From the IMG/VR virus record IMGVR_UViG_3300025333_000001: 20,000 nucleotides of DNA; one strand, written 5' to 3'. The position numbers and the translations under genes were made by a program. Shown here one piece after another: positions 5,078 through 19,414 of this stretch. The stretch is from an uncultured virus (IMG/VR IMGVR_UViG_3300025333_000001) (taxonomy: Duplodnaviria > Heunggongvirae > Uroviricota > Caudoviricetes > Thumleimavirales > Hafunaviridae). The notes under the pieces are model-generated. The model searched no databases and was not told the origin of the DNA. It worked only from the letters and a program-made list of their open reading frames with translations. Numbering within the stretch: position 1 is the first letter of the stretch; every line of letters begins with the position of its first letter.

Positions 5078-5150
5078 AGCTTCAGTCCCACACGATGTGG
5101 GAAAGCTGCCGAGGGGGCGTGACCCCCGTGGAGTCTTACTCTTCGGCAGT
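5078..5150 (-). ncRNA. Module 1: mini-tRNA (5150-5105) plus leader hairpin
   Basis: ACTGCCG AA GAGT-AAG-ACTC CA CGGGG GTCACGC CCCCT CGGCAGC, then TCCCACA-TCG-TGTGGGA, then ATG. Confidence 0.65.
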
Positions 5151-5224
5151 TACCGCACTGTCAACACGCTCGGCGACACGGCAGTCAGCCCCGGTCGTTG
5201 TACATTCCAACCACATCACATTCA

Positions 5225-5836
5225 ATGACACGAAAACTCCATCAGCAAGATGTCTGCGAGGTCACGGATAACGACCTGCAGACCGAGATCACTCGTCACC
5301 TCACTGGTGATGTCCTCGCGCTTGCAGTTGAGGACAGTCGCCTACAGTCTCTCGTCCCGATCGCCGGGCAAACCACGCTGTTCGGTGGCCACCTCGACTT
5401 CGGAGAAACCTCGGACCTGTACGCTGCACCGTTGTATGACCCGAACAATGAACAAGCGGCGTACTTCCCGCGGAACAAGAACGAACGCTTCCACTACGGC
5501 ACAAACTCGTACGATACCATCGTGACGCTGTTCCCGAAATGCGGGTACTTCCAACGCCCACCGCCGTTCATGGACATGACTCGAATCGTCCGTCCCGGTG
5601 GAACGCTCGTTGCGGTGACTGGCTTACAGCCAGAATCACCGGATGACCATGACGCGAAATGGTGGGTGCCTGCCAGCGATGACGTTGACTTGGATACCAT
5701 TCGCATCCTTCGGTCGAGTGGGTTCAAAACCCCGATTCTCGTGAACGTCTTCACCGTCACGACAAGTACGGAACGGCATCCTGAAGCAGCAGTCGTCACG
5801 GGGCCTGCAGACCGCCGAGAGGAGGTTCAAGCATGA
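5225..5836 (+). CDS. Class I SAM-dependent methyltransferase-like protein
   Basis: YGTNSYDTIV and MTRIVRPGGTLVAV motifs; the Gly-rich motif I is not obvious. ATG at 5225. Confidence 0.6.
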   Translation: MTRKLHQQDVCEVTDNDLQTEITRHLTGDVLALAVEDSRLQSLVPIAGQTTLFGGHLDFGETSDLYAAPLYDPNNEQAAYFPRNKNERFHYGTNSYDTIVTLFPKCGYFQRPPPFMDMTRIVRPGGTLVAVTGLQPESPDDHDAKWWVPASDDVDLDTIRILRSSGFKTPILVNVFTVTTSTERHPEAAVVTGPADRREEVQA

Positions 5837-6948
5837 AGCTAACCGATTACACTGACAACGCTGAAACGGACAGTCAGGACCGTCCTGTTGACGCGTTCGA
5901 TAGCGAAGCGCTGCACGAAGAAGAACACGAACAGAACGACAATTGGGAATGGAGCGCGGAATTTACGGAGTTCATCCACGACGAGATCGAAGGGCGGTCG
6001 TTGAAGGTCTGTCCGGGACTCCGTCCGATCTGCGACGTGAATCTGGACATCAAACATCTCGGTGACATCGCTGACTCCGACAACGCAGCTTTCAACGTCG
6101 AACCCATCACGAGTAGTTCTGACCGGCTGCAAGACCTTCGTGGAACGGTTAGTGATGATGCCGGGGAAGACATCATCTACGGTCGCATCACCGGTGAGAA
6201 CGGCGACACGGACGGCCTGTACGACGGGTACGCGTGCTACGGCGACATGTTCGAACTACCGTTCGATGACAACTCGTTCGACACGGTCGTCGGGGACCCG
6301 CCGTGGTTGAACCTCACAACAGAGGAACGTCGAGTGCTCTTCGAGGAAATCGTTCGCGTCACTGCCCCGACAGGGAAAATCATGTACAACGCCACGTGGA
6401 TACCGGAGGATGAACACGCTCGACAGTTCCAACTCCGATTCCGGCAACAACTGGACTATTGGGGCGGACCGAGCTTCGCAGCGTTCTACCGCCGTTCCGC
6501 TCGTGACATCCCCGAACTGTTCGATGCACATGATTACGAATCCGTAGAGCGATACCCGGAGGAATCCGCGTTCTGGTCAGAGGCGTTGAGTACTGAGCAT
6601 AACACTGACCCGAAGAAAGTCAGTGGTGACTCTGACTATCACCAGTACTGTTGCCCGATGTGCGGGTGCGCGCAACTCGGGCACCTTCGCGGCGAGTTCT
6701 TCGAAACCAGTGACGGTGAGTACAACACGTATCAGTGTCATAACTGCGAATTCCGTGTTGATTCTGCGGAAGTTAATCGTCTCGCTGAGGCACTGGAAAC
6801 CGCAACTGCTGAACAGAACGTCTCCGTACAGGAACTCACCGATATTGAGTACACGCCTTCCTGCGTTGAACAACAGTTAGAACAACTCGGTCCAAATGAC
6901 TCGTTGGATGATGCTCCGTTCTCTGCGGACCTTCCGTGGGTACCGTGA
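5833..6948 (+). CDS. Amino-methyltransferase-like protein (DPPW) with C-terminal zinc ribbon
   Basis: GDMFELPFDDNSFDTVVGDPPW, EIVRVTAPTG and CPMC..CHNC; ATGA overlap with the upstream gene. Confidence 0.75.
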   Translation: MKLTDYTDNAETDSQDRPVDAFDSEALHEEEHEQNDNWEWSAEFTEFIHDEIEGRSLKVCPGLRPICDVNLDIKHLGDIADSDNAAFNVEPITSSSDRLQDLRGTVSDDAGEDIIYGRITGENGDTDGLYDGYACYGDMFELPFDDNSFDTVVGDPPWLNLTTEERRVLFEEIVRVTAPTGKIMYNATWIPEDEHARQFQLRFRQQLDYWGGPSFAAFYRRSARDIPELFDAHDYESVERYPEESAFWSEALSTEHNTDPKKVSGDSDYHQYCCPMCGCAQLGHLRGEFFETSDGEYNTYQCHNCEFRVDSAEVNRLAEALETATAEQNVSVQELTDIEYTPSCVEQQLEQLGPNDSLDDAPFSADLPWVP

Positions 6949-7066
6949 TACGAGCATGCAGTCGCATCTGAAACCCCGTCCCCGCATTGCAGTCCACCGT
7001 GCAGGCATAGGAGTATGATCACTCTCAGTCCTATCAGTGCTATTCCCGCGACGACCATCACGGTGA

Positions 7067-7267
7067 TTACCCTTCAGTCCATGTCTCAAACTCGTTACCG
7101 CATGTTTTACAACAATGCTGGTAAACCATTGAGTCGGAATATTTGGGAATTGCTTTGGTGCCATAAATCGCGTCTTCGCCACATTCACACGGCTGTCCTT
7201 TGTTGATGTGCAATCCACACCGGTCGATCTGATCGAGTGATTTCTTTTGTGCGTCAGTGAATGCCAT
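7067..7267 (-). CDS. Small zinc-finger protein (66 aa, MAFTDAQKK...)
   Basis: CECG..CKTCG; start reassigned to the ATG behind the leader hairpin. Confidence 0.7.
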   Translation of the reverse strand: MAFTDAQKKSLDQIDRCGLHINKGQPCECGEDAIYGTKAIPKYSDSMVYQHCCKTCGNEFETWTEG

Positions 7268-7337
7268 AACTACCCCACACGGTGTGGGAAAGCTGCCGTG
7301 GGGCCGTGAACCCCGTGGAGTCTTACTCTTCGGCAGC
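7268..7337 (-). ncRNA. Module 2: mini-tRNA (7337-7292) plus leader hairpin
   Basis: GCTGCCG AA GAGT-AAG-ACTC CA CGGGG TTCACGG CCCCA CGGCAGC (perfect 7-bp acceptor), then CCCACA-CCG-TGTGGG. Confidence 0.75.
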
Positions 7338-7595
7338 GGTCGCACTGTCAACGCGGTTGGCGACCCGCCTCAACATGGCCGCCTGATACTGCTCGTCGGT
7401 TGCTTCTTTCGGGTTTTCACGGTGATACCGTGCGAACCCCGTTGCCAACTCGCGGGCGTCCTCGGGTGACAACGCCCGTTTTTGCTCGCCGATCTGTACC
7501 CCCACTCGTTTACCATCTTCCGCGACCCATACCTTCATCTCATCGGGACCGCGCATCATGTTCCAGTCGGGGTCGTCAGCAAAGCCGAACGCCAC
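7323..7595 (-). CDS. Hypothetical protein (90 aa)
   Basis: Acidic ORF starting 2 nt after the stop of the DUF932-like gene. Confidence 0.7.
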   Translation of the reverse strand: MAFGFADDPDWNMMRGPDEMKVWVAEDGKRVGVQIGEQKRALSPEDARELATGFARYHRENPKEATDEQYQAAMLRRVANRVDSATAAEE

Positions 7596-7597
7596 GA

Positions 7598-8959
7598 CTA
7601 CTCGTCGGCTGCCGTGGGGGCAACCAACATTTCTTGGAGTTGTTCCTGTCGCGTTTCGAACTCTTCTTTCTGGTCTTCGACCGTGGCTTGGAACTTCTCG
7701 ACGGCTGCCCCGTAGGACATGGCATCGAGTTCGCCCTCATCTTCGGCGGCAGCCCGCTGTCGGGCTTCGCGCTGCTGGGCGTTGTTTTCCGTCCGGTCGA
7801 TGGCCTGCGCCGGATTCATGATCATGTCGTTGCTCGCCGATACCAACTCGTTGAGGCGGTTGGTGTTCTCCCCACCGCGGTAGTGGTGCGTGATGGCGTA
7901 GGTTGCCCCACTCTGCATCTCCCACATGGTGGGGAGGAACTGGTTGTCGGCACGACTCCGAACGTGACTGGACGCCTCACGGGCGAGGTACGACGGGAAG
8001 CCCGCCATCTCGAACCACGCTTGCAGGTCGTCGGTGTGGCCCACAAGCTCCGAGAACTCGAAACTCAGGTAGTCCACGTCGATCTGGTTGGCCGTCTCGA
8101 TGACTTCGGCCAGTTTGTCAGTCATGAGATCCATGTCGGCAAGAATCTCGTCCCACCATTCGCGGGTTTCCGATGGCTCACCGACGTGACGACGCGACTT
8201 CTGGTCGGTCACGTTGCGGATCGAGTTGGAACACCACGTATCCTGTGCGAACCCTTCGGCGTACATGGCTGTTCCACCGAAGTAGTCGTAGCCAGTGCGG
8301 ATACCGAGGAGGATCGGGCCGCCCGACTCGCCCCCATCGGTAGCCACGTTGGGGTCGGCTCCGGGGTTGTCAATGCGGAAGGCATCGAACAGCATCTCGA
8401 TGTGAACCTCACCGCCACCTTTGTAGGTGCGGATCTCCCCGAACACGGCGTCCCCGAGTTCCTCCTCGCGGATGGCCTCTTCGAGCGGGCCGTAGAAGTC
8501 GAGGGGGTTGACAATCGCGTAGTCTTTTGTCGGGTTGTGCCACAGGGGGTCGATCCACTGGTTGTTGTCGTCCCGTCGGGCATCACCCTGAATCCAGCTT
8601 TCGAGCTTGTCGGGCGAGATCACCGACTGGAACCGGTCGGTTTGAACGAACACGTTGCCGTCCATCGTTTCGTGGAACGTGACACCATCGGGGGTGTCGT
8701 CGCTCAGTTCGTCCACGTCGATGTTGCGAGCGACCTGCTCGGGAATCTTCCACGCGTTGCCCGTTTCTTCTGCTCGTTCAAGGCCACGGATGGCTGTTGC
8801 GAGCGAGGTGTCGGGCATATCGTCGGGGTAGAACCCGTTGTCTCGGCTGTGATCACCGCTGGCTGCGTCTGCTGCCTTCTCGCTGAGTTCGACATTGTTA
8901 TGGCTGGTTAGTCCTGCAAACTGTACCGTTTCGTCTGGGGTTGAACTTCGTCGGTTCAT
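7598..8959 (-). CDS. DUF932-like phage/plasmid protein with C-terminal coiled coil
   Basis: YAIVNP..F, GYDYFGG, CSNS and RRHVG pattern recalled for DUF932; strongly acidic 453 aa. Confidence 0.65.
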   Translation of the reverse strand: MNRRSSTPDETVQFAGLTSHNNVELSEKAADAASGDHSRDNGFYPDDMPDTSLATAIRGLERAEETGNAWKIPEQVARNIDVDELSDDTPDGVTFHETMDGNVFVQTDRFQSVISPDKLESWIQGDARRDDNNQWIDPLWHNPTKDYAIVNPLDFYGPLEEAIREEELGDAVFGEIRTYKGGGEVHIEMLFDAFRIDNPGADPNVATDGGESGGPILLGIRTGYDYFGGTAMYAEGFAQDTWCSNSIRNVTDQKSRRHVGEPSETREWWDEILADMDLMTDKLAEVIETANQIDVDYLSFEFSELVGHTDDLQAWFEMAGFPSYLAREASSHVRSRADNQFLPTMWEMQSGATYAITHHYRGGENTNRLNELVSASNDMIMNPAQAIDRTENNAQQREARQRAAAEDEGELDAMSYGAAVEKFQATVEDQKEEFETRQEQLQEMLVAPTAADE

Positions 8960-9051
8960 AGGTTTGTCCCACCAATTGTTTAACCGGAGTCGATGGCGGG
9001 TTTCGACTCGATGAGGCGGCGCAGAGTCGAACTGCGCTACACCAACGCCTC
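8960..9051 (-). ncRNA. Module 3: mini-tRNA (9051-9013) plus H-type pseudoknot (9009-8968)
   Basis: GAGGCG TTGGTGTA GCGCAG TTCGACT CTGCGC CGCCTC A, then GAGTCGA AA CCCGCCA TCGACTC N12 TGGTGGG ACAAACCT ATG. Confidence 0.8.
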
Positions 9052-9090
9052 GGCGGCTACCGGTCGCTAACTATTCGTTTCCTCGTTGAT

Positions 9091-9576
9091 TTATCCGTTG
9101 ACGACTGCCTCGGCGAACAGACGACCCGACTCAAAGTCGTCTGGCTTAGCGATTACGACTGGGTAGCTGTATCCCCAGTTGTAGTCAGTGAGCCGCTTTG
9201 CAATCGAGTGCATCACACCACTCACTGCGTAATGGTAGTCCGTCGTGTCGTGTCCCGTGGGAGATAGGTACTCCTTATACCGCGCATCATCAGTAGCTAA
9301 CACGATCACGTCGTCTGTTTCCTCTACAAGCCGGTAGTGACCTTGCTCGATACCATACATGTGCTCACTCCACGTCTCCTCAGCGGACCGCTGGAACGTT
9401 TCGAGAGCTTCGCGCACTTTATTGATATCTTGGATCGCCCCGCCGTCGGTCCCGTGTTCGATGTCGTCGTTGGTGATGTGCTGGGTTCGATCATCGATCT
9501 CACCGCCGTCGGTTCGGATCTCTGTTGTTTCGCTGACGCACTCTTCAAGATCGTCAAAGTGGACTCGTGGGTTCAT
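9091..9576 (-). CDS. Hypothetical protein (161 aa, MNPRVHFDD...), paralog of 17878..18195
   Basis: Acidic; ATG 1 nt after the upstream stop; shared H..A..LTDY.W...PVV..K motif. Confidence 0.75.
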   Translation of the reverse strand: MNPRVHFDDLEECVSETTEIRTDGGEIDDRTQHITNDDIEHGTDGGAIQDINKVREALETFQRSAEETWSEHMYGIEQGHYRLVEETDDVIVLATDDARYKEYLSPTGHDTTDYHYAVSGVMHSIAKRLTDYNWGYSYPVVIAKPDDFESGRLFAEAVVNG

Positions 9577-9577
9577 G

Positions 9578-10183
9578 TTATTGCTCAATTGTAGCTGCGG
9601 TTTGTTCGTCGTCCTGTTCGGCGGCGTCTTCGAGTTCCGACCCGAAGAGGGTCGGCGGCATTTCACCCTGATGGCTGCCATCGTAGGCTTCGGAATCGTC
9701 GGCCTCAACTAAGATGAGTTGGGCGACTGGGTACCCCACTGGCAGGTGAACACAGTCCAACGACTGTGGCACTTGCAGGAGGCCCTCACCAACGCCGTTG
9801 TAGCCTTGATCCCACACCGCAGTGGTGATCTCCATTCCCGACCGCATGAACCGACTGCGCGGCTTCACGAGGCCGACGTGGCCTTCAGGAATGGTGATGT
9901 GTTCGCCGTACTCGATGATATATGACCCCGAATAGACACGGTAGAACGGCGACTTGGTGTTACCCATTGGGTCAAACGTTCGCATTCGAGTTCGCTGGCC
10001 GTGATCGTAGCCATCGTCGTTGCCCTCGGCGTCGGCATAGAAGTGAACTGTTCCGCTCGTTCGGAGCAGATCACCAACTGTCAGGTCAACCCCGTTGGGC
10101 TGAATTTGGTCGTCGTCAATCGGTTCGCCGGTTCGGTTTTTGGTGAGGTGTTCAACTACGAACTCCCCGGATCTGACTGTCAT
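9578..10183 (-). CDS. dCTP deaminase / trimeric dUTPase family protein
   Basis: IQPNGVDLTV, PRSRFMRSG, AVWDQGYNG, VAQL and YDG..QG motifs. Confidence 0.9.
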   Translation of the reverse strand: MTVRSGEFVVEHLTKNRTGEPIDDDQIQPNGVDLTVGDLLRTSGTVHFYADAEGNDDGYDHGQRTRMRTFDPMGNTKSPFYRVYSGSYIIEYGEHITIPEGHVGLVKPRSRFMRSGMEITTAVWDQGYNGVGEGLLQVPQSLDCVHLPVGYPVAQLILVEADDSEAYDGSHQGEMPPTLFGSELEDAAEQDDEQTAATIEQ

Positions 10184-10259
10184 AGTTTGGATTTTATGTG
10201 TTTGTTCATCAACTATTCGCTCTCGAAATTTTGGGCGATTTTCCGTGAGTTTTGACCGT

Positions 10260-10733
10260 TTATGCTATCGCCCCATTGTGATTTATCGACCATTCAACGT
10301 AATCGCTCCATTCTTTGGCGAAGTTGTTGCGTTTTTTCGCGTTGAACTCGCGGATGGTATCGAGATCTTCGGCACTCCACCCGTATTCAGCCGCCTGTTC
10401 TCTATCACGAAGATACGGCCATGCGGTTACGGCGATCAGATAGCCGTCGTGGTGGTGTCCGGCAATGAACCACCATTCGACGCCGTCGTTGTGTCTCATC
10501 CAATGAAAGGATGAACAGCCGTCGCCGTTGTTTTTCAACTCACCCTCAACGATTGTTCGCTGAATGACCTCGTTGGTCAAAAACCGCTCAGGATCTTTGA
10601 ACCGCTGTCGGAAGTGATCTGTTCGCCGGTATTTGTGTGGTTGGTGAGGGTAATCAGCGGGGTCAAACGTTCGTGACCGATCAACGGGAACCCGCTCATC
10701 GGAATTGTGCGGTACTTGTACTGTTGGATTCAT
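10260..10733 (-). CDS. Hypothetical protein (157 aa, MNPTVQVP...)
   Basis: Start reassigned to the ATG behind the leader hairpin. TDHFRQR...AVTAW is loosely like RelE/DUF4258-type folds (unverified). Confidence 0.7.
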   Translation of the reverse strand: MNPTVQVPHNSDERVPVDRSRTFDPADYPHQPHKYRRTDHFRQRFKDPERFLTNEVIQRTIVEGELKNNGDGCSSFHWMRHNDGVEWWFIAGHHHDGYLIAVTAWPYLRDREQAAEYGWSAEDLDTIREFNAKKRNNFAKEWSDYVEWSINHNGAIA

Positions 10734-10811
10734 GGTAGTATTTGTCCCGTCGAACTGCACGACGGGGGATGCACTGCCGGGGAATCGAACCCCGAGTCGC
10801 CCATTCAGTGC
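10734..10811 (-). ncRNA. Module 4: mini-tRNA (10811-10771) plus leader hairpin
   Basis: GCACTGA ATGGGCGACT CGGGG TTCGATT CCCCG GCAGTGC A, then CCCGTCG-TGCAGTT-CGACGGG ACAAATACTACC ATG. Confidence 0.8.
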
Positions 10812-10908
10812 TGGCATCACGAGTCCCCACTCGATGACGCCGCCGACGGAGGTTGCTCACTCCGAGTAAATAATTAACTCGGGGGGACTTAGTTGTTACG
10901 TCCGGGGG

Positions 10909-12006
10909 TTACTCGTCGTCCAGAATGATGACGCTTCGAGCCATCGGCTCCTCCTCGTGCCGCTCGATGTCGAAGGCTACGTTGACCCCCTGTTCGATGC
11001 TGTCGATCTCGATCTCCGTGGGATAGAAGAACACGTCGTCAGCAACATCTTCGGACTCGATGAAGCCGTAGCCACCAACGTCGTTGAAGAAGGCGACCTC
11101 ACCCCCGTAGTCTCGACCGTGGAGTGGGTCTTTCCCTTCGGCGACCTCCTCGCTTTCCTGCTCGCGTTCTTTGACTGCTTCGACTTCGGCTTCAAGTTCG
11201 GTTCGAAGATCGTCAATAACGTTGCGTGTCTCGCCTGCAATCGGAGCGCGGTTGGCAGCCTGTTTGATGTCATGCCATCGGCCGAAGAACAGGTGTAGCT
11301 CTTCGGCAATATCCGATGGAACCGAATGAACCGCTCCAATCGATTCGAGAGCTTCGGCAATCGTCGGCTGGGTATCCCGCGTGTGATCGTTGACCATCTC
11401 TCGGTACTTGTGGCAGAAGTCCATCAGCACGTCGTTGTCTAGTTCCAGCACGCTTTCGAACTTTTCCTGATCTTCGAAGACAACCACGTTGGAAAAGGCG
11501 ATGAAGTCGATCCACATCGCCAACTCGTTGACCCCACAGTGACAGAACGGGCAGAACTCCATCTGACTGGTGAACGCGTCTCGAACGTTGAGCGAAGACC
11601 GAATGTCGTGGTTGTTCTTACCATCCGAGTGGCCGTGGTACAGCCCACAGACCTTACACTCGTACCCCGAAGTTTCGCTGTGTTCGACCATGCTACTCGC
11701 TTCTTCGAGAACGCCAGCCAAATCGGGGTTGACATCCTTGATCCGGCTGATCTCGTTTTCGATCTCGTCTTTGCTGATCCCCGATGGGACGCTGTGACTA
11801 CCGAGCTTCCACTGGCTTACATAATCGGGTTCTTCCGGGGGAGTGTAGGACTCGCCCTGTTCGGCGGCGTCCCCGGTTTCCGACTCCTCTTCGTCCCCAG
11901 CGAGCCGACCGAGGAAATTTCGCACCGGGTCTTCGAATTTGCGTGCGGTTGATTCGTCGTTGGTTTCTGCGTCGTTGCTACCGTTGTTGTTGTTGCTTCC
12001 GAACAT
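10909..12006 (-). CDS. Cys/His-rich protein fused to a C-terminal cold-shock (OB) domain
   Basis: GEVAFFNDVGGYGFI..DDVFF..GVNVAFDIE; CKVCGLYHGH and CPFCHC. Confidence 0.8.
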   Translation of the reverse strand: MFGSNNNNGSNDAETNDESTARKFEDPVRNFLGRLAGDEEESETGDAAEQGESYTPPEEPDYVSQWKLGSHSVPSGISKDEIENEISRIKDVNPDLAGVLEEASSMVEHSETSGYECKVCGLYHGHSDGKNNHDIRSSLNVRDAFTSQMEFCPFCHCGVNELAMWIDFIAFSNVVVFEDQEKFESVLELDNDVLMDFCHKYREMVNDHTRDTQPTIAEALESIGAVHSVPSDIAEELHLFFGRWHDIKQAANRAPIAGETRNVIDDLRTELEAEVEAVKEREQESEEVAEGKDPLHGRDYGGEVAFFNDVGGYGFIESEDVADDVFFYPTEIEIDSIEQGVNVAFDIERHEEEPMARSVIILDDE

Positions 12007-12099: not shown

Positions 12100-12175
12100 T
12101 TAGCCACCGCTGGGTGTGGGCCGAGATGAACGGGCCACCCTTCTCGGCCCAAAATAAACGTCACCGCAGATACGC

Positions 12176-12550
12176 TCACATCAATCGGCGCTCAGCGCCG
12201 TACACGATTTTCGAGGATGCTTCGTACCCACAGTTCCGGCACTCGAACCAGCGCTGAATCTTCGCACCGTCAGCCGTTTTCCCCCCGATTGCCACGTCGC
12301 TGTTCGGACACTCGGGACAACTCAGTTCGGGCGCTGGCCGTTTCCGTAGCTCATCACGAAACGATTTCGCGTCCTTCGTCTCGTACCCCCGCGACCACAC
12401 TGGGTAGCCGTCTACGAGGATTACGCCACGCCACTTGTAGCGGTACGAATTCGGTGCTTGGTGTAAGACCGCCAGAGCGCCGGTCTCGGTATTCCGGTAT
12501 GCGAGTGTGGGCGTGCGGCTTTCACGTCGCCAGTTTGTGATTCTGGGCAT
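12176..12550 (-). CDS. Zinc-ribbon protein of a type common on haloarchaeal mobile elements
   Basis: CPEC..CRNCG. The MPRITNWRRES start is familiar from haloarchaeal hypotheticals (recalled). Confidence 0.75.
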   Translation of the reverse strand: MPRITNWRRESRTPTLAYRNTETGALAVLHQAPNSYRYKWRGVILVDGYPVWSRGYETKDAKSFRDELRKRPAPELSCPECPNSDVAIGGKTADGAKIQRWFECRNCGYEASSKIVYGAERRLM

Positions 12551-12647
12551 AGGTTGTATCCCGCTTGTTTTGTGTCATTGCGCTCGGCGGGCTTGCGCTC
12601 AATGCCTAATGGGGGCCGTGAACCCCCCGAGGTCTTAGCTTTTAGGC
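12551..12647 (-). ncRNA. Module 6: mini-tRNA (12647-12604) plus pseudoknot, family B
   Basis: GCCTAAA AGCTAAGACCTCG GGGGG TTCACGG CCCCC ATTAGGC A. Leader 12548-12602 is 54/55 identical to 12004-12058. Confidence 0.75.
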
Positions 12648-13010
12648 GGTTGCATCAGGCAGCCACAAGTCTTTGTATTTTCGGCTGTCGAACCCGATTT
12701 TCTTCGGCGCATCATCGATGCCAGTACCATTGAGAATGACATCCACGTTTTTCTCCGAAGTTAGTCCGGCTGTTGAGAAGTGGCACTTCGTTGTTTGTGA
12801 TCCGGCCTGACTTCGGGTGTTTGAACCGTTGGCCCACCCTGCAAACGTCACGATGAACCCCTCAGCGGTTCGCAGGGCGTACACCGCGTGGCCGTACCCC
12901 ACGAGAATGGTTCCCCCTTGATCCGTTTCGTGGATTTTCATGTTCGATGCAGTTCCGCTCGTTTCTCCGCGTAGAAACCGTCGTCCGAGTTCGTGTTGGT
13001 TGTAACTCAT
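12642..13010 (-). CDS. Hypothetical protein (122 aa)
   Basis: 4-nt overlap with the upstream gene; in the operon orientation. Confidence 0.7.
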   Translation of the reverse strand: MSYNQHELGRRFLRGETSGTASNMKIHETDQGGTILVGYGHAVYALRTAEGFIVTFAGWANGSNTRSQAGSQTTKCHFSTAGLTSEKNVDVILNGTGIDDAPKKIGFDSRKYKDLWLPDATA

Positions 13011-13696
13011 TGGTTGTTAGGTGCGTTTTTGAGTGCCCAAATGGACTTTGCAAAGAACTCCATCTCGCTGTCCGAAAGACGGAACTTCTGGCCGTCAATT
13101 GTTAGCGTACGATCCATGTCTTTGGTTGCTGACTGGACGTTTATCTTGTACGCTTCTTGCGACGAGCCGTTGCTGACTGCCGAACCGCTCACCTGACGGC
13201 TGGTGGTGTCGGGGTGGTGGAACTTACCTTCGAATGTCAACAGGAGGTGATCGTAGATCAGCCACCCCCCATCCTCGTGTTCGACTGCTTGTGAGAATGG
13301 AGCTTTCGTTGCCAGCGATTCGAAGACGTGGGTTCGAATCTGCTTGTTTCGAATCGAATCGAACATCTGAATCAACTGCTCCGGGGTGTCCGATTCGTAG
13401 TGGTCCATAAGTGCATCAATCAGCCGAGATTGATGGTGTGAACCGAGATGCAGCGGTTCGAGGTCGTCAACAACCAGAGTGTAGCTGTTGTCTTCATCCT
13501 CGATGGGGGCCACTTCAACTCGTGGGGTGGTGTCGGTGGCACCGATCATCAGTATTTCGTCGCCTTCTCGGAGCAGCCCCCACAGATCGTGATCGTACAG
13601 CAGCTTGTTCATGGGGGACAGGGAGATCATTTCTACCCGTCCATCGTCGTGTTGGACTAACAGGTTTGCGTCAGTTTCGTCTAATATTGTTGGCAT
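13007..13696 (-). CDS. Hypothetical protein (229 aa)
   Basis: Long acidic ORF in the operon orientation. Confidence 0.8.
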   Translation of the reverse strand: MPTILDETDANLLVQHDDGRVEMISLSPMNKLLYDHDLWGLLREGDEILMIGATDTTPRVEVAPIEDEDNSYTLVVDDLEPLHLGSHHQSRLIDALMDHYESDTPEQLIQMFDSIRNKQIRTHVFESLATKAPFSQAVEHEDGGWLIYDHLLLTFEGKFHHPDTTSRQVSGSAVSNGSSQEAYKINVQSATKDMDRTLTIDGQKFRLSDSEMEFFAKSIWALKNAPNNQ

Positions 13697-13702
13697 GGTA
13701 TG

Positions 13703-13849
13703 TCACTCATCGGCGGCGTCCTCGATTAGTTGCTCGTCACTATCCTCTTCAGCATACCCCTCTTCCCACTCGTACAGTGAGTGATACTCATCGGGGTCAA
13801 TATGGTTGTGTGCCCGGCCTTTTTTGTGCGTTAACGGGGGTAGATCCAT
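13703..13849 (-). CDS. Small acidic protein (48 aa) MDLPPLTHKKGRAHNHIDPDEYHSLYEWEEGYAEEDSDEQLIEDAADE
   Basis: Fills the gap between two genes; SD-like GGATGTGAT upstream; halophilic composition; below the ORF-track cutoff. Confidence 0.55.
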   Translation of the reverse strand: MDLPPLTHKKGRAHNHIDPDEYHSLYEWEEGYAEEDSDEQLIEDAADE

Positions 13850-13874
13850 GATCCCAGTATCACATCCCTTCCGG

Positions 13875-16658
13875 TCACTCGGAGTCTTTGTTCCAGCCCC
13901 GGTCGTCTACGGTTCCAACGGTCTTGCGAAGCGACAGGGCGTCCATGTCCATGGGGTTGAGGCCCACATCGTACAGGCCGAGGATCATGTTTTCAACCCG
14001 GCTGTCGGCATCTTTAAGGAGCGAGTAGACACCGCTGTCGTCGTCCCATTCGGGCGTTTTCGCCTTGAGCCGGTATTCCGACTCACTGCCAGACAAGTAG
14101 TCGAACGAGATCCGGGCTGGCCCACGGTAGTAGTTGCCATTGGTGCCACCCCATGTGGATTTCACCCCGTGGATGTTGTTGATGATGCACTTGTTGAGAG
14201 CGAATGCCATCCGTTCGAGGGTTCGATCATCGGCCACCCCGACAACCACGTCTTCGATCTCCGGCTTGTTGTCACTCCCAGTCGACCAGTACTGGCCGTT
14301 GACCTCGTCTTCGGCGTAGTAGTAGCGAAGCTGGGCCATCTCCTCAGTGTCGGCCATCATGGTTTTGACCGTGTTGTTGTGAGCGTAGACAACCACCGCG
14401 AAGTCAGCGTCGCTTAGTTCGGCTGCCGTCATGGCACCGTCACTCGTTGCCATGACCGCGTTCTCCGACATCTCGGTGAACTCCTCGTAGGATACCACCC
14501 GGTCGTATTCCGACAACACATCGAACTCTGCGGCAGAACAGGAAGCGATTGCCCCGTATTCCTGCATCGGGTAGTGATCCGAGATGTTGGCATCGCCGTT
14601 TCGTGGGAACAGGATTACGTAGTTGTGACCCCACATACGGATACCATCATCGAGCTTGTCGGTGAGGGTGCCGATTGTCGCCCGTTTGTCAATCGACTGG
14701 TTGTTGTTGTTGGTTCGGAACTTGAGTGTCACCTCATCGATGTTGTCCGCTTTGCCCCCGCCGTTCGATGTGGATTTCTTGCGCTTGTGACGACTGTGAA
14801 TCGCGTCGGACACTTCGAAGTCATGGTCGTCACTCTGCTGCATTGGCACGTCGTTGAGCCGTTGGAACCCGAAGATGCCCTCGAACTGATCGTAGCCAAT
14901 CGACGCACCACTGGTCGAGATAACAGCCGGATCATCGAAGGTATCATGGACCACCTTGTACTTGTCCTCGTTGATCGTCTTCCCCATAAACACCTGTTCC
15001 GGCGGGGTTGACGACAGGATCTCGCCCACCATCCGCCCGGTTCGGTTGGACTTTTGGCTGGGTGCATGGCATCGCTTACCGGCATAACTTACGTCTTCGA
15101 ACAGTCGGAACACCTGTTCTCGGAGTTCATTATCCCACCCGGATAACTCGGCATGGTTATCAACGAACTTGTCGAACTCGTTGCGGCGTTTCGTCGCGTT
15201 GTAACTATGGTAGTCAACCATGCGGTAGAACAGTTCCCACGACTGGGTGTCGTTCCGAAAGACATCTGTCGGGCGATCTGCATCCCGCATTTTGTCAGCG
15301 ATATCACTGACCTTTTCCATCTCGGCGTCTTCCACCATCTCGCTCAACATGGCGAAGAACCGCTCAGTCTTGCCGTCACGCTGTAGTCGATCCCGGTCGG
15401 TGGTTGGCTCCGGCATCGGTGCGTCAAGCTCATGCAGTTTGCCCTCGCGCTTTTCGACCTCGTTCCGGTACTCACCGCGGTGTGGCCCCATCACGATCTT
15501 ACCCTGTTCATCGTGAATGTGAATGAGAACCTTCCAGAACGATTTGACCTTCTTGTTCGTGTTGCGATCAATCTCCATGCCGACCAGCCACGTATCAGGA
15601 TCTTTGTAGCTGTTAGGCAGATCAGGCCCTGCAATCAGGGTGAACTCGCCGGGTCGGTCGATCACAACTGATGGGGTTTCGCCAAACGCCTCGGCGAATG
15701 GCTGGCCCCCGAACTCCTCTTTCTCACGGTTTCGACCAGCCTCATGCTCTTGATAGAGGACCGGAACGGCCAGTTTCGAGGCGTATTTCCGTGTCCACGA
15801 CAGGAACTTGTCCATGTTGACCGACTCCTGAATGGGAACATCGAACCGCGTTCCCCGAAAGTCGTCATCAATGTCGGCCGACGGCATGGGGTCGAACCCA
15901 GCGAGGTAGGTGTAGGCTTTGATGCCTTCGTAATCGTAGTCTTTGGCATCGGGTCGTCGGGTCCGTGACGTGACTTCCATCCCGCCCTGCTTGCCGGCGA
16001 TGGCCCCAAACGTCATAGCTCCGATCCCCCACTTCCCCCCGGTGTCGCCATCGATAGATGACCCCGAGTCGAACGTGGAGTTGTAAGCGTCGTTGAACTC
16101 TTTGACCGTCATACCAATGCCGTTGTCTTCGATCACAATCTTCCGCTCATCGCGGTAGAGATCGACCTCGATGGTTGGATCGTAGCCGAGATCACGAGCC
16201 GCGTCAATAATCTCGTGAAGGCTGCGGGGAATCTTCATTTCGCGGAACTTGTCACCGTCAAGGGACCACTCGGGTAGCAGACTTTGGTTGGCATCCTCTT
16301 GATCGAGCGTTTCCCCCGTTTTGGTGTTGACCCAGATCGTGGGGTTCAACCACTCCACCCCATAATCGGGGTGCTCTCTCAACAAAATGCGAGCCGCCCG
16401 AATACAGGCTGTCTGTGCGTTTTGAAGGAACTCCCGAATGAACGATGAATCGTCCGAGTAGATCGACTCGGCCAACACCTCGTTGGCCTTTTCGATGTTC
16501 ATCGTTCGCTCTTGCGACCCGGTGCTTCCCAGACCCCGTGCAAGGGGGTTGTTTTCGTCTACCGCGTTGATGTTTTTCGTTTCGAGATCACTTTCGACGT
16601 TCTGCACGCTTGATTCGTAACTATCCTTCGTTTCTGGCAGGTGTTCTGAATCGCTCAT
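13875..16658 (-). CDS. Large GHKL (Hsp90-like) ATPase-domain protein, 927 aa, possibly rIIA-like
   Basis: IYSD..FIREFLQNA, IEDNGIGMT, GKWGIG and GTRF motifs. Start reassigned to ATG 16658 behind the repeat leader. Confidence 0.85.
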   Translation of the reverse strand: MSDSEHLPETKDSYESSVQNVESDLETKNINAVDENNPLARGLGSTGSQERTMNIEKANEVLAESIYSDDSSFIREFLQNAQTACIRAARILLREHPDYGVEWLNPTIWVNTKTGETLDQEDANQSLLPEWSLDGDKFREMKIPRSLHEIIDAARDLGYDPTIEVDLYRDERKIVIEDNGIGMTVKEFNDAYNSTFDSGSSIDGDTGGKWGIGAMTFGAIAGKQGGMEVTSRTRRPDAKDYDYEGIKAYTYLAGFDPMPSADIDDDFRGTRFDVPIQESVNMDKFLSWTRKYASKLAVPVLYQEHEAGRNREKEEFGGQPFAEAFGETPSVVIDRPGEFTLIAGPDLPNSYKDPDTWLVGMEIDRNTNKKVKSFWKVLIHIHDEQGKIVMGPHRGEYRNEVEKREGKLHELDAPMPEPTTDRDRLQRDGKTERFFAMLSEMVEDAEMEKVSDIADKMRDADRPTDVFRNDTQSWELFYRMVDYHSYNATKRRNEFDKFVDNHAELSGWDNELREQVFRLFEDVSYAGKRCHAPSQKSNRTGRMVGEILSSTPPEQVFMGKTINEDKYKVVHDTFDDPAVISTSGASIGYDQFEGIFGFQRLNDVPMQQSDDHDFEVSDAIHSRHKRKKSTSNGGGKADNIDEVTLKFRTNNNNQSIDKRATIGTLTDKLDDGIRMWGHNYVILFPRNGDANISDHYPMQEYGAIASCSAAEFDVLSEYDRVVSYEEFTEMSENAVMATSDGAMTAAELSDADFAVVVYAHNNTVKTMMADTEEMAQLRYYYAEDEVNGQYWSTGSDNKPEIEDVVVGVADDRTLERMAFALNKCIINNIHGVKSTWGGTNGNYYRGPARISFDYLSGSESEYRLKAKTPEWDDDSGVYSLLKDADSRVENMILGLYDVGLNPMDMDALSLRKTVGTVDDRGWNKDSE

Positions 16659-16745
16659 AGGTTTTATCCCGGTCTTATATCGCGCCGTTCCGGGGTTATG
16701 GCGCAGGGGCCGCCGGGGAGTCGAACCCCGGTACTCCAACGGCCT
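16659..16745 (-). ncRNA. Module 7: mini-tRNA (16745-16707) plus pseudoknot, family A
   Basis: AGGCCGT TGGAGTAC CGGGG TTCGACT CCCCG GCGGCCC, then TGCGCC ATAAC CCCGG AAC GGCGCG ATATAAGA CCGGG ATAAAACCT ATG. Confidence 0.8.
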
Positions 16746-16787
16746 ATCGTCTGTCGTCTGTACTGACCGCAACCGGGTTAGAATGTA

Positions 16788-16976
16788 TTATCTGTTGAAT
16801 TCCTCAACAGAACCCGTTAATTCAATGACACGCACTGTACGGTGATCATTTTGGGGAACAATTTTGCACGGTTTGTCACTCCCGTTGGCGTTGTACACCC
16901 GCACTCTTTGCTGAAGGGCGTAGACTATTTCCTTCCCGTTTATGGTACTGACTGTTTTCCAACGGCTGTAGCTCAC
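16788..16976 (-). CDS. Small hypothetical protein (62 aa)
   Basis: GTGA start/stop overlap with the upstream gene. Confidence 0.5.
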   Translation of the reverse strand: MSYSRWKTVSTINGKEIVYALQQRVRVYNANGSDKPCKIVPQNDHRTVRVIELTGSVEEFNR

Positions 16977-17764
16977 GGTTCACCCCAGACAAACCCTTCG
17001 GCGTCCATCATCGGCTTAATGCTGTATTCGTATTGGTGCATCGGCGTTGTTTCCGAGCCGAGGACCCGAAGCCAGTGGTCGCCGCCTTCTAACTCGGCGT
17101 TGTGGTCGTAGCGAAGCCGCTTCAGGAACGAGTTGTGAAGTTTCACTGACGACCGATGCCACTCCTTGCGGCTTCGGGTGTTTTTCTGAAGCACGTCGTT
17201 CGACTCTTTCGATGGGCGAACTTCGTAGTCGAAAAACGATTTGTAGAACGTGAACTTTAGCATCTCGTCCCAGAGCTTCAGTCTCTCGTCGCGGTTGATG
17301 ACGCCGAACTTCTCGGCAAGCATCTGCCGCAGGGCGATTTTTCGCTCGAAATGCTGCGGGTGGTGGTAGGTGGTTCGCTCTGCTATATCGAGTTCGTGTT
17401 GAACTACGGTCTGCTGAAGCCACTCGGGAACAGCTTTGAGTTCGTACTCGATGCTGTTGATGTAGCGCAAAACGTCGGCGTTGCGGTTGCCACTGATGCC
17501 GGACGACACCCAGTCGAGCAAGAGGCTCCGAATCCCCTCGAACGCCTCATCATCGCTAACGGCGACGTTAACGAGCGTACCCCTCTTGATGCCGTTCTCC
17601 CCATCGAGACTCAGTACACCGCGAATTGCGTCTCTCTCCACCGGCTCAACGCCGCTTTCTGGCTCGCCTTCCAGCAACATTTGCGCCATGTCTCTCGCTC
17701 CGATGTGTTTCAGCACTTCGCCGACCATTTCCTCTGCTCGGATTCGTCGTGTATTTTGGTTCAT
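16973..17764 (-). CDS. Hypothetical protein (263 aa, MNQNTRR...)
   Basis: Start reassigned to the ATG behind the repeat leader. Confidence 0.75.
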   Translation of the reverse strand: MNQNTRRIRAEEMVGEVLKHIGARDMAQMLLEGEPESGVEPVERDAIRGVLSLDGENGIKRGTLVNVAVSDDEAFEGIRSLLLDWVSSGISGNRNADVLRYINSIEYELKAVPEWLQQTVVQHELDIAERTTYHHPQHFERKIALRQMLAEKFGVINRDERLKLWDEMLKFTFYKSFFDYEVRPSKESNDVLQKNTRSRKEWHRSSVKLHNSFLKRLRYDHNAELEGGDHWLRVLGSETTPMHQYEYSIKPMMDAEGFVWGEP

Positions 17765-17860
17765 AGGTTGTATCCCGGTCTTATATCGCGCCGTTCCGGG
17801 GTTGTGGCGCAAGAGTCGTCGGGGGGATTGCACCCCGAACCAGCGTGGTTACTGCGACTT
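17765..17860 (-). ncRNA. Module 8: mini-tRNA (17860-17813) plus pseudoknot, family A
   Basis: AAGTCGC AGT AACCA-CGC-TGGTT CGGGG TGCAATCC CCCCG ACGACTC, then the pseudoknot at 17812-17774. Confidence 0.75.
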
Positions 17861-17877
17861 GTCGTTGATGTTCACTG

Positions 17878-18195
17878 CTACACCAATTTGTCAAACACGA
17901 CTGGATCAACAGCCGCCCAATCATAGTCAGTCAGTTCGCGTGCAACCTCGTGGTTCCACGCGTAAAACGCATCGCAATCCTCTTCAGTCATGTTAAAGTC
18001 AGACACCCACTCATTCAGCTCATGCCCAGTGTGGTCGGCCACAACGATCACCTGATCGTCTTCGTAGACGACCTCAGCGTCAGTATGAGGATCTTTGCGG
18101 TATTCGTACTCAAACTCACCGAAGTGCTCGGCCATCGAGATTTTCATCGCCTCGCTTCGCGGATCGTCGGTGCTGATGAATCCTTGTGTGTTCAT
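17878..18195 (-). CDS. Hypothetical protein (105 aa, MNTQGFIS...), paralog of 9091..9576
   Basis: ATGA overlap with the upstream gene; very acidic. Confidence 0.75.
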   Translation of the reverse strand: MNTQGFISTDDPRSEAMKISMAEHFGEFEYEYRKDPHTDAEVVYEDDQVIVVADHTGHELNEWVSDFNMTEEDCDAFYAWNHEVARELTDYDWAAVDPVVFDKLV

Positions 18196-18452
18196 TGTCG
18201 GTTGTTTTGCTCCATCCATTCGCGGGCCGGTTCGGCGGCGTTTTCGGGTTTGAGACCGACTTCGACGTAGTCGATTACCTGATTGTCTTGATAGTAGTTT
18301 TCTGGGAGTGTCACTACGTTGTAACTACTCCTCCCTTCCCGCTCAATGGCAAGCACAAGGCCATCGCGTCGCCGCTGAAACGTCTGTCGCTGGTGGTCGA
18401 ACTCTGGTTCAATCTCGGTCCATCCGGCTGGGGGTTTGACTTGCTGGTTCAT
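18192..18452 (-). CDS. Hypothetical protein (86 aa, MNQQVKPPAGW...), copy 1
   Basis: Close paralog of 19654..19914; ATG behind the repeat leader. Confidence 0.8.
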   Translation of the reverse strand: MNQQVKPPAGWTEIEPEFDHQRQTFQRRRDGLVLAIEREGRSSYNVVTLPENYYQDNQVIDYVEVGLKPENAAEPAREWMEQNNRQ

Positions 18453-18548
18453 AGGCTGTATCCCGGTCTTATATTGCGCCGTTCCGGGGTTGTGGCGCAA
18501 AAGCCGTCGGGGAGATTGCACCCCGAACCAGCGTGATTACTGCGACTT
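18453..18548 (-). ncRNA. Module 9: mini-tRNA (18548-18501) plus pseudoknot, family A
   Basis: AAGTCGC AGT AATCA-CGC-TGGTT CGGGG TGCAATCT CCCCG ACGGCTT. Differences from module 8 preserve pairing. Confidence 0.75.
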
Positions 18549-18596
18549 GTGGTTGATGTTCACTGTCGGTTGTTTTGCTCCATCCGTCTGACTCAC

Positions 18597-19259
18597 CTAT
18601 ATCTCTCGGTTGATAGCTTCGCTGTGGTATGCCTCTCGGAACGCGGGCAACACATCCTCTTTATGGATATGATATCCGATATCGGTAGGTGTGGTGTCGT
18701 AAGGCGCGTAACCAGCCAATTGTTGCAGTTGTGGGGCGATATTGTTGATGTATTGCGCCGAATCGGTTGGGATTTCGTAATGTTCGTCTGGAGCGAACAC
18801 ATCGGTAGGAGCATAGTCCCGACCAATTTCCGCAGCGCGTTCGGCAGCCTTTTCGCCGATCTCTTCAATGGTGAGACAATCTGTGTCTGCAAAGCCGCCC
18901 AACTCCTCCGTCATACGCAGGCGGAAGCGCAATTCTGGGTCATACGACTTGTGGACGAGCAGATTCACGTTAAGCGGTTTTTCACAGTCCTCGCACACTG
19001 GCGCTGGATAATCCCATTCAGCATCACCGAAGATTGCGCCATTATCATTATCAGCTAATTCCTCATCAGTAGCACAGTTACCACAGATGATATCGCAGTC
19101 ATTGACCACGATCCCCGCAAGACCGTATGGGGCATATCCTGATGGTGTTTGCGATTTGAGGTTAGCATGGTCCTCGTACAGTGCTTCGGTCGAACTTACG
19201 ATGATTTCGTTGTTCAGGTCTTCGGCTCGCTGTCGTCGGGTTTGGGTGTCGTCACTCAT
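18597..19259 (-). CDS. Hypothetical acidic protein with CxxC..CxxC motif (220 aa)
   Basis: CGNC..CEDC; ATG behind the repeat leader. Confidence 0.75.
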   Translation of the reverse strand: MSDDTQTRRQRAEDLNNEIIVSSTEALYEDHANLKSQTPSGYAPYGLAGIVVNDCDIICGNCATDEELADNDNGAIFGDAEWDYPAPVCEDCEKPLNVNLLVHKSYDPELRFRLRMTEELGGFADTDCLTIEEIGEKAAERAAEIGRDYAPTDVFAPDEHYEIPTDSAQYINNIAPQLQQLAGYAPYDTTPTDIGYHIHKEDVLPAFREAYHSEAINREI

Positions 19260-19356
19260 GATTTGATTTCCCGGTCTTATATTGCGCCGTTCCGGGGTTG
19301 TGGCGCAAGAGTCGTCGGGGGGATTGCACCCCGAACCAGCGTGGTTACTGCGACTT
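19260..19356 (-). ncRNA. Module 10: mini-tRNA (19356-19309) plus pseudoknot, family A
   Basis: Nearly identical to module 8 over 19270-19358, with a different spacer to the ATG (AAATCAAATC). Confidence 0.75.
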
Positions 19357-19364
19357 GTGGTTGA

Positions 19365-19395: not shown

Positions 19396-19414
19396 TCGTT
19401 ATTCGGTGACGGCG

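Follow-up and report, generated by a model that had tools for sequence, protein, structure and literature searches.

Strand-specific mini-tRNA elements with structured leaders between the genes of a haloarchaeal tailed virus, and their predicted processing by host enzymes

The 20,000-nt stretch of DNA analyzed here (the window) comes from the IMG/VR record of an uncultured virus, IMGVR_UViG_3300025333_000001, and covers the arm of non-structural genes in a haloarchaeal tailed virus resembling hafunaviruses. Ten small elements, each followed by a hairpin or pseudoknot leader and a start codon, lie between its minus-strand genes; all of the elements and leaders described below are on that strand. 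They fall into three families (types A, B, and C), and comparative analysis indicates that type A is a real, selected, and strand-specific mimic of the top half of a tRNA. The structural part of this account is well supported, comprising observed structures, covariation, strand, position, and conservation in cultured viruses, and the function is predicted. Cleavage of element-bearing transcripts by the host's RNase P and tRNase Z would be the best explanation for the module, and one to which we give about an even chance of being correct.

An earlier reading of the window, made from the letters without database searches (hereafter the sequence-only reading), had listed ten such elements, described as punctuating the minus-strand gene run, sense-oriented and some 25-55 nt upstream of an ATG. 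All ten were recovered, each folding on the minus strand into a closing stem plus a 3′ hairpin, and orientation and position held for 10 of 10, at a measured distance of 24-54 nt from the ATG. Nine of the ten intergenic gaps of at least 50 nt between co-directional minus-strand genes (7266-19414) carry an element, the exception being 10184-10259, and the tenth element (5105) is placed beyond a plus-strand insert. Between elements, grouped genes overlap or stand 2-25 nt apart, and these tightly packed groups of one to four genes are each headed by an RNA leader module. The bare topology is common, with a loose descriptor matching the plus strand of the window 66 times and the minus strand 41 times. 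A strict descriptor (loop TTCRANN, T stem of at least 4 bp, and a directly stacked acceptor of at least 5 bp) gave no plus-strand and four minus-strand matches; 300 dinucleotide shuffles averaged 0.25 matches, and in none were there as many as four. A first covariance model, trained on two copies each from the window and from relatives, returned exactly the four type A elements at E <= 3e-4; the next match had E = 0.11. The nearest usable relative of the window is G002, a complete IMG/VR contig of 70,466 bp that is collinear and mosaic; two descriptor matches in it (55529 and 56125) were rejected as false positives, being parts of real tRNA genes.

Type A elements consist of an acceptor of 5-6 bp, a linker of 8-10 nt, a T stem of 5-6 bp, and then the 3′ acceptor strand, which follows without a junction nucleotide. 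The element at 9013-9051 (covariance model E 5e-16) combines the acceptor GAGGCG/CGCCTC, the linker TTGGTGTA, and the T arm GCGCAG-TTCGACT-CTGCGC; an identical copy occupies the syntenic site in G002, and a diverged copy lies in the virus HRTV-7 upstream of the gene 84 homolog. The element at 10771-10811 has the acceptor GCACTG/CAGTGC and the T loop TTCGATT (E 2.8e-4, or E 3.2e-8 with model R2). At 12061-12099 (E 5.6e-7), the acceptor CCCGGT(G)/(C)ACCGGG is joined to the T arm GGGGG-TTCGACT-CCCCC, in a module with a 98% identical counterpart in G002. The fourth element, at 16707-16745 (E 6.5e-17), stands before an HSP90-like gene, and has the acceptor GGCCG/CGGCC, the linker TTGGAGTA, and the T arm CCGGGG-TTCGACT-CCCCGG.

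An improved model extended the type A set to 23 matches, 18 of them distinct, from the window, G002, G003, HRTV-7, HSTV-2, HCTV-6, HF2, and one further contig, and all of these matches are on the coding strand of their genomes. Across the 18 distinct copies, which come from at least seven viruses, 94.7% of the cells are paired, and compensatory change on both sides is seen in 11 of the 12 pairs. Covariation scored 0.726, compared with 0.173 in shuffles (0 of 500 reached the observed value) and at most 0.177 with slid partners, in an alignment that was fitted to the model and so favours structure, a bias that the slid-partner controls share. A smaller alignment (set A3) agrees on covariation. 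Read on the sense strand, the alignment has five G.U cells against one A.C cell, which speaks for that strand. For the A family, the view of the sequence-only reading that structure rather than sequence is conserved is supported. The acceptor and T arm form a coaxial stack of 11-12 bp, backed by covariation; because 9 of 17 distinct copies leave the first acceptor pair open, the usual stack is 11 bp, slightly shorter than the top half of about 12 bp that had been claimed.

At the elbow of tRNA, G18 and G19 pair with positions 55 and 56, and the T-loop consensus, UUCRAnY, holds U54, C56, R57, and A58. All four type A elements of the window (TTCGACT or TTCGATT) match this consensus. In the wider set, the loop reads TTCGAYT in 21 of 23 aligned rows; TTCGAGT is one sequence seen three times, and one row has a pentaloop like that of type B. 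Every type A linker contains GG (alignments A3 and A7), which would be the D-loop-like partner of the elbow through a predicted tertiary contact. Together, the conserved T-loop and GG, which are what a tRNA elbow needs, explain a weak Rfam match to the tRNA-like domain of transfer-messenger RNA (tmRNA) at 16713-16777 (E 0.011; 15.5 bits against a gathering score of 47).

Type A elements also occur in cultured viruses. HF2 (AF222060.2) carries two of them (2905-2945 and 4375-4414) in its repeat-free first 16 kb, and five further haloferacalesviruses have exactly two type A matches each. At the HF2 4375-4414 site, the acceptor shows two independent compensatory double changes, GCTCTG/CAGAGC in Serpecor1 and GCCCCG/CGGGGC in HRTV-24, and the T arm is invariant. 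These double changes imply that an RNA holding both acceptor strands is under selection, for example in read-through transcripts.

The sequence-only reading had overlooked an obligatory second component, present behind every element. At a distance of 2-4 nt, each element is followed by either a simple hairpin or an H-type pseudoknot, the 3′ strand of which (..GGGA) ends 9-13 nt before the ATG. Simple hairpins are of the types CCCAC../..GTGGG, CCCGC/GCGGG, CACCC/GGGTG, and CCCGTCG/CGACGGG; those of the window were identified by inspection at 5078-5104 (CCCACA/TGTGGG; ATG 5077 of a 34-aa open reading frame (ORF) overlapping the next gene's start), 7268-7291 (CCCACA/TGTGGG; ATG 7267 of a 66-aa Cys-rich ORF), and 10734-10770 (CCCGTCG/CGACGGG, then ACAAATACTACC; ATG 10733). 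In the pseudoknots, the loop of the first hairpin (S1), CCCNC, pairs with GNGGG downstream of an A-rich linker to form the second helix (S2), and past the 3′ strand the sequence continues as A-YAMAAC.., with the ATG 9-13 nt later. Inspection placed such leaders at 8960-9012 (S1 GAGTCGA/TCGACTC, S2 CCCGCC/GGTGGG, then ACAAACCT; ATG 8959-8957) and 16659-16706 (S1 GCGCC/GGCGC, S2 CCCGG/CCGGG, then ATAAAACCT; ATG 16658). A third kind, in repeat D5, is found at 12007-12060 (S1 GCGC/GCGC, S2 CCCGC/GCGGG, then ATACAACCT; ATG 12006), and recurs behind a type B element at 12551-12603 (ATG 12550). The 16659-16706 leader likewise recurs behind the three type C elements in copies of repeat D1, at 17765-17812 (ATG 17764), 18453-18500 (ATG 18452), and 19260-19308 (ATG 19259).

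Since the same leader is found behind an A or a B element (12061 and 12604) and behind an A or a C element (16707 and 17813), the mini-tRNA and the leader are independent modules. S1 occurs in five sequence types (GAGTCGA, GCGC, GCGCC, GAGCGCC, and GGACG) and S2 in six, U.G included (CCCGCC/GGTGGG, CCCGC/GCGGG, CCCGG/CCGGG, CCCGT/GCGGG, CTCGCC/GGCGGG, and CCGCC/GGCGG). S1, S2, and the simple hairpins covary, as do the hairpins behind both HF2 elements among six viruses; for the pseudoknot leaders and for type B, covariation was assessed by inspection of the listed sequences, the MAFFT alignments being out of register. In G003, the leaders carry a Shine-Dalgarno (SD)-like GGAGGTG or GGAGAG between hairpin and ATG. 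Covariation that includes U.G pairs, along with these SD-like sequences, argues that the leader acts as RNA that is contiguous with the mini-tRNA or starts right after it.

The remaining six elements depart from the single geometry that had been proposed for all ten: the seven acceptor sequences in ten copies stand, and they are distributed over three sequence families. Type B is a three-helix Y, comprised of a closing stem, a small hairpin (GAGU-AAG-ACUC or a variant), and a third helix, GGGG(U)-UCACG-(R)CCCC, in which the closing pair of the pentaloop is U-A, U.G, or G-C. The element at 5105-5150 (folding z-score -3.8) has the closing stem CTGCCG/CGGCAG, the small hairpin GAGU-AAG-ACUC, and the hairpin GGGGG-UCACG-CCCCC, and lies in a 94-nt direct repeat, D4. 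The other D4 copy holds the element at 7292-7337 (GCTGCCG/CGGCAGC; z -3.65), with the TAA stop of the upstream ORF 7323-7595 in its small hairpin. The third, identified by its fold at 12604-12647 in repeat D5, is closed by the stem GCCTAA/TTAGGC, within which ORF 12642-13010 has its stop codon. Among eight copies (window, G002, and HRTV-7/HSTV-2), the closing stem has seven different sequences, all of which pair. The stack is 6-7 plus 4-5 bp in the window, where hairpin and closing stem are separated in all three copies by a C.A mismatch or a bulged T or A, and 7 plus 5 bp without a bulge at HRTV-7 57753. Within D5, the hairpin at 12604 and the T arm of the type A element at 12061 can be aligned at every position, and type B accordingly resembles a diverged type A.

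Type C is a single 121-nt repeat (D1), leader included, in three copies that are 83-94% identical. The element at 17813-17860 has the acceptor AGTCG/CGACT, a small hairpin CAGU/GCUG, and a T-like arm with the loop UGCAAUCC; that at 19309-19356 is identical to it. A variant found by its fold at 18501-18548 has the acceptor AAGTCG/CGGCTT, with pairing kept via one U.G and an A-U pair gained. The stack is 5 plus 6 bp, and the T-like loop, UGCAAUC, agrees in part with the consensus, keeping U54, C56, A57, and A58 and having G55 instead. The claim of an acceptor stacked on a T arm with a T-loop thus applies in full to type A, fails for type B in its loop, and applies to type C in part.

Several familiar identities were considered for the ten elements and rejected. 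Genuine tRNA genes are excluded by the missing D and anticodon arms: ARAGORN found only tRNA-Cys and tRNA-Ala in the window, with no cloverleaf at the elements, and the Rfam tRNA model matched none of the ten at E <= 10. At that threshold, Rfam returned for elements and leaders, besides the two tRNAs, only the weak tmRNA match, with no preQ1 or other pseudoknot riboswitch on the leaders. An attP or partial-tRNA origin does not agree with the presence of both acceptor strands, a missing middle, seven acceptors, and a spread over 14 kb. The archaeal intrinsic terminator was likewise rejected, as the sequences that follow the elements (ATCGAG, ACTTGA, CTGCGC, TTGCGC, and TTTCCC) contain at most three T. 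Among the 40 differences listed for four metagenome DNA contig sets, no usable variants fell inside elements. The 24 sequencing runs listed include no RNA run that contains the window's sequence.

The proposed function takes its precedent from Haloferax. In the parts of the published accounts that bear on this, t-elements placed around any RNA are cut in vivo by RNase P and tRNase Z (PMC4326828, PMC4946936), and tRNase Z makes the 5S rRNA 5′ end beside a tRNA-like structure (PMC4326828, PMC4946936, PMC3296008); the sequence-only reading had invoked this processing, and these sources back it. On this precedent, haloarchaeal cells should cut an RNA with a type A element on either side of that element, and we infer that transcription passes through the module, that the two enzymes cleave there, and that the hairpin has a protective role. 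Long sense transcripts, reading through from upstream units or starting at promoters just upstream of a module, would fold the mini-tRNA; host RNase P would cut on its 5′ side and host tRNase Z after the discriminator base, separating the upstream message and releasing a mini-tRNA of roughly 40 nt. The downstream mRNA would then start 1-4 nt before the foot of the hairpin or pseudoknot, and this structure may both shield the message from 5′-to-3′ decay, which in haloarchaea is carried out by RNase J, and fix the distance to the start codon. In the most economical picture, promoters would lie just upstream of some modules, and the mini-tRNA would trim promoter-proximal leaders and read-through transcripts alike to a common pseudoknot-headed mRNA. 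The genuine tRNA genes of the window share their strand with the gene run, which counts in favour of cleavage by tRNA-processing enzymes.

Transcripts of HF2 provide a partial comparison. The portions of the HF2 study consulted give transcripts of up to 35 kb by reverse-transcription PCR (RT-PCR) and of at most 9 kb on Northern blots, and list F1, from the first annotated coding sequence (CDS), and F2 as separate RT-PCR transcripts (PMC8707807). From the transcript names and numbering, F2 appears to start at the second CDS, HrrHF2_010 at 2979, which would place the break in the gap holding the 2905-2945 element; a break there fits processing, but fits separate promoters plus terminators equally. 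A 5′ end at T-4384 was mapped by primer extension, a method that cannot separate primary ends, processed ends, and reverse-transcriptase stops, and the authors read it as a transcription start behind the motif CTAAAGACTTAGAA (PMC8707807). This motif is located at HF2 4343-4356, about 30 nt upstream of T-4384.

A number of observations weigh against cleavage at the elements. T-4384, the only published end near a type A element, is position 10 of the 4375-4414 element, in the linker rather than at a boundary, and tRNase Z cleavage would yield a product that starts near 4416; accordingly, the elements could be 5′-leader devices behind promoters as much as punctuation. Moreover, AAAGACT, the "alpha" motif of the HF2 class I repeats, stands about 20-30 nt upstream of both HF2 elements (4343-4356 and approximately 2882-2888) and is invariant in six viruses, so that the elements may belong to promoter modules. 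The acceptor stems of type A are 5-6 bp rather than 7, and Haloferax tRNase Z reportedly (Schierling, in 2002) loses much of its activity on substrates without a D arm. Type B has a UCACG pentaloop (which departs from the T-loop consensus in three of three), a linker devoid of GG, and a mismatch where the helices join. Type C, found outside the window in one copy only, in G002, lacks independent covariation. Finally, the folding z-scores of the ten elements are modest (-0.6 to -3.8), the energies alone being unremarkable.

The same HF2 data also fit DNA-level promoter or regulator modules, akin to the HF2 class I/II repeats, in which the stems would be protein-binding inverted repeats or incidental and each gene group would have its own promoter. 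In the consulted parts of the HF2 study, the intergenic repeats of that virus, which belongs to the same family, carry promoters (PMC8707807). T-4384 lies inside a type A element and behind the alpha-like motif. Both HF2 elements are preceded by a conserved AAAGACT, which the TAAGAC conserved in the type B small hairpin resembles; this motif may be a common regulator site by which promoters and mini-tRNAs are connected. There are also AT-rich stretches in the pseudoknot loops and upstream of some elements, and modules are duplicated together with cassettes. DNA binding, however, leaves unexplained the canonical T-loop, the GG linker, the G.U pairs on one strand, and the compensatory changes in four helices. 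The AT-rich stretch in the pseudoknot loops, at -24 to -15 from the ATG, was rejected as a TATA box for leaderless mRNA, as its distance varies and is too short, and in G003 the leaders carry an SD-like sequence but lack an AT box. Identity with HF2-type promoter repeats was rejected as well: the class I beta (CTTTAAGT) and gamma (CGTCTNNTAGAG) motifs have 6 and 1 one-mismatch matches in the window against 7.45 and 0.95 expected, none of them in a module. We consider promoter modules unlikely.

Also rather improbable, in our estimate, is the possibility that the elements are structural RNA ends that act without tRNA enzymes, as 3′ or 5′ stabilizers of messages or binding sites for viral proteins, with another nuclease responsible if they are cut and the tRNA likeness a relic of viral tRNA genes. 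The overlap of type B elements with the stop codon of the upstream ORF would agree with this, as would the fact that types B and C fill the same slot as type A without a canonical T-loop; a cold-shock-domain protein is encoded in the run (10909-12006), and HF1-group viruses are described, in the part of the source consulted, as having truncated tRNA genes and aberrant tRNA-like sequences (PMC7230728). On the other hand, the stems of type A vary freely from genus to genus but its T-loop and GG do not, a pattern that argues for selection on the tRNA elbow itself, and the Haloferax enzymes cut t-elements wherever these are placed (PMC4326828, PMC4946936, each as consulted in part).

A broader variant of processing by RNase P and tRNase Z, which we regard as speculative and improbable, treats the non-structural genes of hafunaviruses as exchangeable cassettes, each with a mini-tRNA and pseudoknot leader at its head that would hijack the two enzymes and give every mRNA a pseudoknot-capped 5′-monophosphate end. 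The leaders would at the same time flood the cell with at least ten species of mini-tRNA of about 40 nt that act as small RNAs, which during takeover might, for instance, compete with host tRNAs for maturation, modification, or the addition of CCA; types B and C would have diverged for timing or efficiency.

The modules move along with gene cassettes and act as recombination joints. Modules are 92-100% identical between the window and G002, and genes 67-77%. The window, G002, and HRTV-7 share an element upstream of a 453-aa gene, with an acceptor that differs among them. An insert of 2 kb on the plus strand of the window (5198-6948) holds two genes, one without a family (5198-5836) and one with a methyltransferase domain (5833-6948), and adjoins the 66-aa Cys-rich minus-strand ORF (7067-7267). 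This insert is flanked by the D4 direct repeats (5087-5180 and 7274-7367; 87% identical), which hold the type B element, the leader hairpin, and the last codons of ORF 7323-7595, and it looks like a cassette insertion with duplication of the module. Metagenome contigs from other salt-lake samples join 11986 to 12594 and 13011 to 17766, both of which are module sites, skipping a DUF7568 cassette or a 4.7-kb block; population variants thus seem to differ by whole cassettes bounded by modules, with the caveat that contigs break at repeats for assembly reasons too.

Similar rearrangement is visible in cultured relatives, where the order is [B]-[pseudoknot]-gene in HSTV-2 and [B]-LAGLIDADG gene-[A]-[pseudoknot]-gene in HRTV-7. 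This comparison indicates that the LAGLIDADG gene was inserted after the B element, with an extra A element restoring the [element]-[pseudoknot]-gene order. The LAGLIDADG gene itself, gene 85 of HRTV-7, is absent from the same site in HSTV-2. At 14423-14527, 4454-4545, and 13795-14439 of HRTV-7 (KC292021.1), the annotated starts of genes 84 and 103 fall in or upstream of elements, and the annotated end of gene 85 overlaps one. The downstream conserved ..GGGACACAACC..ATG suggests that the true starts of genes 84 and 103 are some 60-85 nt later than annotated, which makes the modules a flag for probably wrong start codons in published annotations.

Such mobility raises the prospect that the modules are recombination linkers, conserved boundaries the main effect of which is cassette exchange by homologous recombination between viruses. 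The contrast in identity between modules and flanking genes, the contig joints at modules, and the nature of repeats D1, D4, and D5 as module copies would all be expected. Linkage of this kind explains the conservation, but not the structure, strand bias, or covariation, and the contig breaks have the assembly explanation noted above; recombination more probably follows from the repetition of functional modules than explains why they are there, and we judge this account very unlikely. A translation device, in which mini-tRNA and pseudoknot would recruit or position ribosomes by tRNA mimicry at a fixed-distance ATG on SD-less leaders, is highly improbable: the 9-13 nt spacing from the pseudoknot 3′ strand to the ATG is fixed, most window leaders lack an SD, and haloarchaea initiate translation on SD-less leaders, but mini-tRNA and leader are independently exchangeable, the G003 leaders have ordinary SD-like motifs, and we know of no archaeal precedent.

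The closest known system is the t-element of Haloferax volcanii, which Hoelzle is said to have described in 2008 and 2012 as a tRNA-like structure preceding 5S rRNA. Both systems belong to one host group, and in each a small tRNA-like fold within a longer transcript stands directly upstream of the RNA, the 5′ end of which it defines in Haloferax; t-elements of this species have also been used to release icrRNAs. Compared by description rather than by sequence, the Haloferax t-elements differ in being cellular, single-copy, and rRNA-linked, whereas the virus elements number up to ten in 14 kb, stand before protein genes, are of three structural types, and are always coupled to a hairpin or pseudoknot.

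In the punctuation model of animal mitochondria, tRNAs between coding regions define mRNA ends via RNase P and RNase Z. In plant mitochondria, according to the portion of the source consulted, tRNA-like folds between coding regions (t-elements) similarly set mRNA ends via the same two activities (Forner 2007, PMC1920247). Both systems are organellar, employ other enzymes (PRORP), and have no pseudoknot leader, in contrast to the viral and archaeal setting here. The mascRNA of MALAT1, MEN-beta, and the tRNA-microRNA units of murine gammaherpesvirus-68 (MHV68) are further examples in which a tRNA-like fold recruits RNase P and/or tRNase Z to make the ends of a neighbouring RNA, and in MHV68 the viral tRNA-like unit is directly followed by hairpins. 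These three are eukaryotic and nuclear, with full or near-full cloverleaves, and their products are noncoding RNAs or microRNAs rather than mRNAs. The tRNA-like domain of tmRNA and minihelix substrates resemble the virus elements in having an acceptor stacked on a T arm, with the D arm replaced by a short strand that bears GG; unlike tmRNA, the virus elements lack an mRNA-like domain and a tag reading frame, and they do not encode CCA.

The class I/II repeats of HF1/HF2 are comparable in another sense, being conserved intergenic modules of the same family that head transcription units and keep their position among relatives (PMC8707807, in part). In the consulted portion of that source they differ as AT-rich repeats of 58 bp and 29 bp with a B recognition element (BRE), TATA box, and initiator and with shown promoter activity, and they have no tRNA-like fold. 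The tRNA-like items listed in the consulted portion of another source are an attP fragment together with a truncated tRNA-Arg and an aberrant tRNA-Pro upstream of terL (PMC7230728). Full-text literature searches turned up no account of mini-tRNAs between the genes of haloviruses.

How archaeal viruses process RNA has hardly been explored, and processing at these elements, if true, would extend tRNA punctuation from organelles and a single archaeal rRNA operon to viral gene expression. For the gap between 35-kb RT-PCR products and 9-kb Northern signals of HF1/HF2, which is unexplained, the mini-tRNA and pseudoknot module offers a mechanism that is concrete and can be tested directly in cultured virus-host pairs. 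The module occurs in cultured viruses (HF2, HRTV-7, HSTV-2, HCTV-6, and the five further haloferacalesviruses), and the host group has tested tools for t-element processing and RNase P knock-down (PMC4326828, PMC4946936), the latter by CRISPR interference in Haloferax as described in the part of PMC4946936 consulted. Should the processing prove real, the modules would also supply natural, compact processing cassettes for haloarchaeal genetics.

The gene run itself extends on the minus strand from 19,681 down to 7,067 and contains mostly unannotatable genes, those with Pfam matches being the HSP90-like ATPase, DUF7568, the cold-shock-domain protein, and a dCTP deaminase. The HSP90-like ATPase (927 aa; 13875-16658, minus strand) has 44% identity to proteins of HRTV-7, HSTV-2, HRTV-2, HRTV-11, HCTV-6, and HCTV-15, which belong to the genus Mincapvirus of the Hafunaviridae; a search of viral contigs with this protein found no close relatives of the window. 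The cold-shock nucleic-acid-binding domain (Pfam E 1.1e-9) ends a 365-aa protein (10909-12006, minus strand), which is a candidate viral RNA chaperone or binder, encoded among structured leaders. The element-free gap at 10184-10259 (minus strand) is AT-rich (..CCCAAAATTTCGAG.., ..ACACATAAAATCC..) and unstructured, and may hold an ordinary promoter for the dCTP deaminase gene.

The two genuine tRNA genes, identified by both ARAGORN and Rfam on the strand of the element-bearing run, are tRNA-Cys(GCA) at 601-673 and tRNA-Ala(AGC) at 977-1071, the latter with a 34-nt insertion; G002 has four genuine tRNA genes. Directly upstream of tRNA-Ala (1072-1145, minus strand) is a terminator-like GC-rich hairpin followed by GTTTTC, with a weak Rfam SorX match (E 0.13). 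The sequence just past tRNA-Ala is conserved in G002, where a different tRNA (Trp) occupies the site. Repeats D2/D3 (18191-18460 and 19653-19922; 87% identical and 1462 nt apart) are paralogous gene segments, and ORFs 17878-18219 and 19415-19681 both start with MDGAKQPTM. Together with the three copies of the type C element and its leader, the D2/D3 segments point to a tandem duplication of cassettes.

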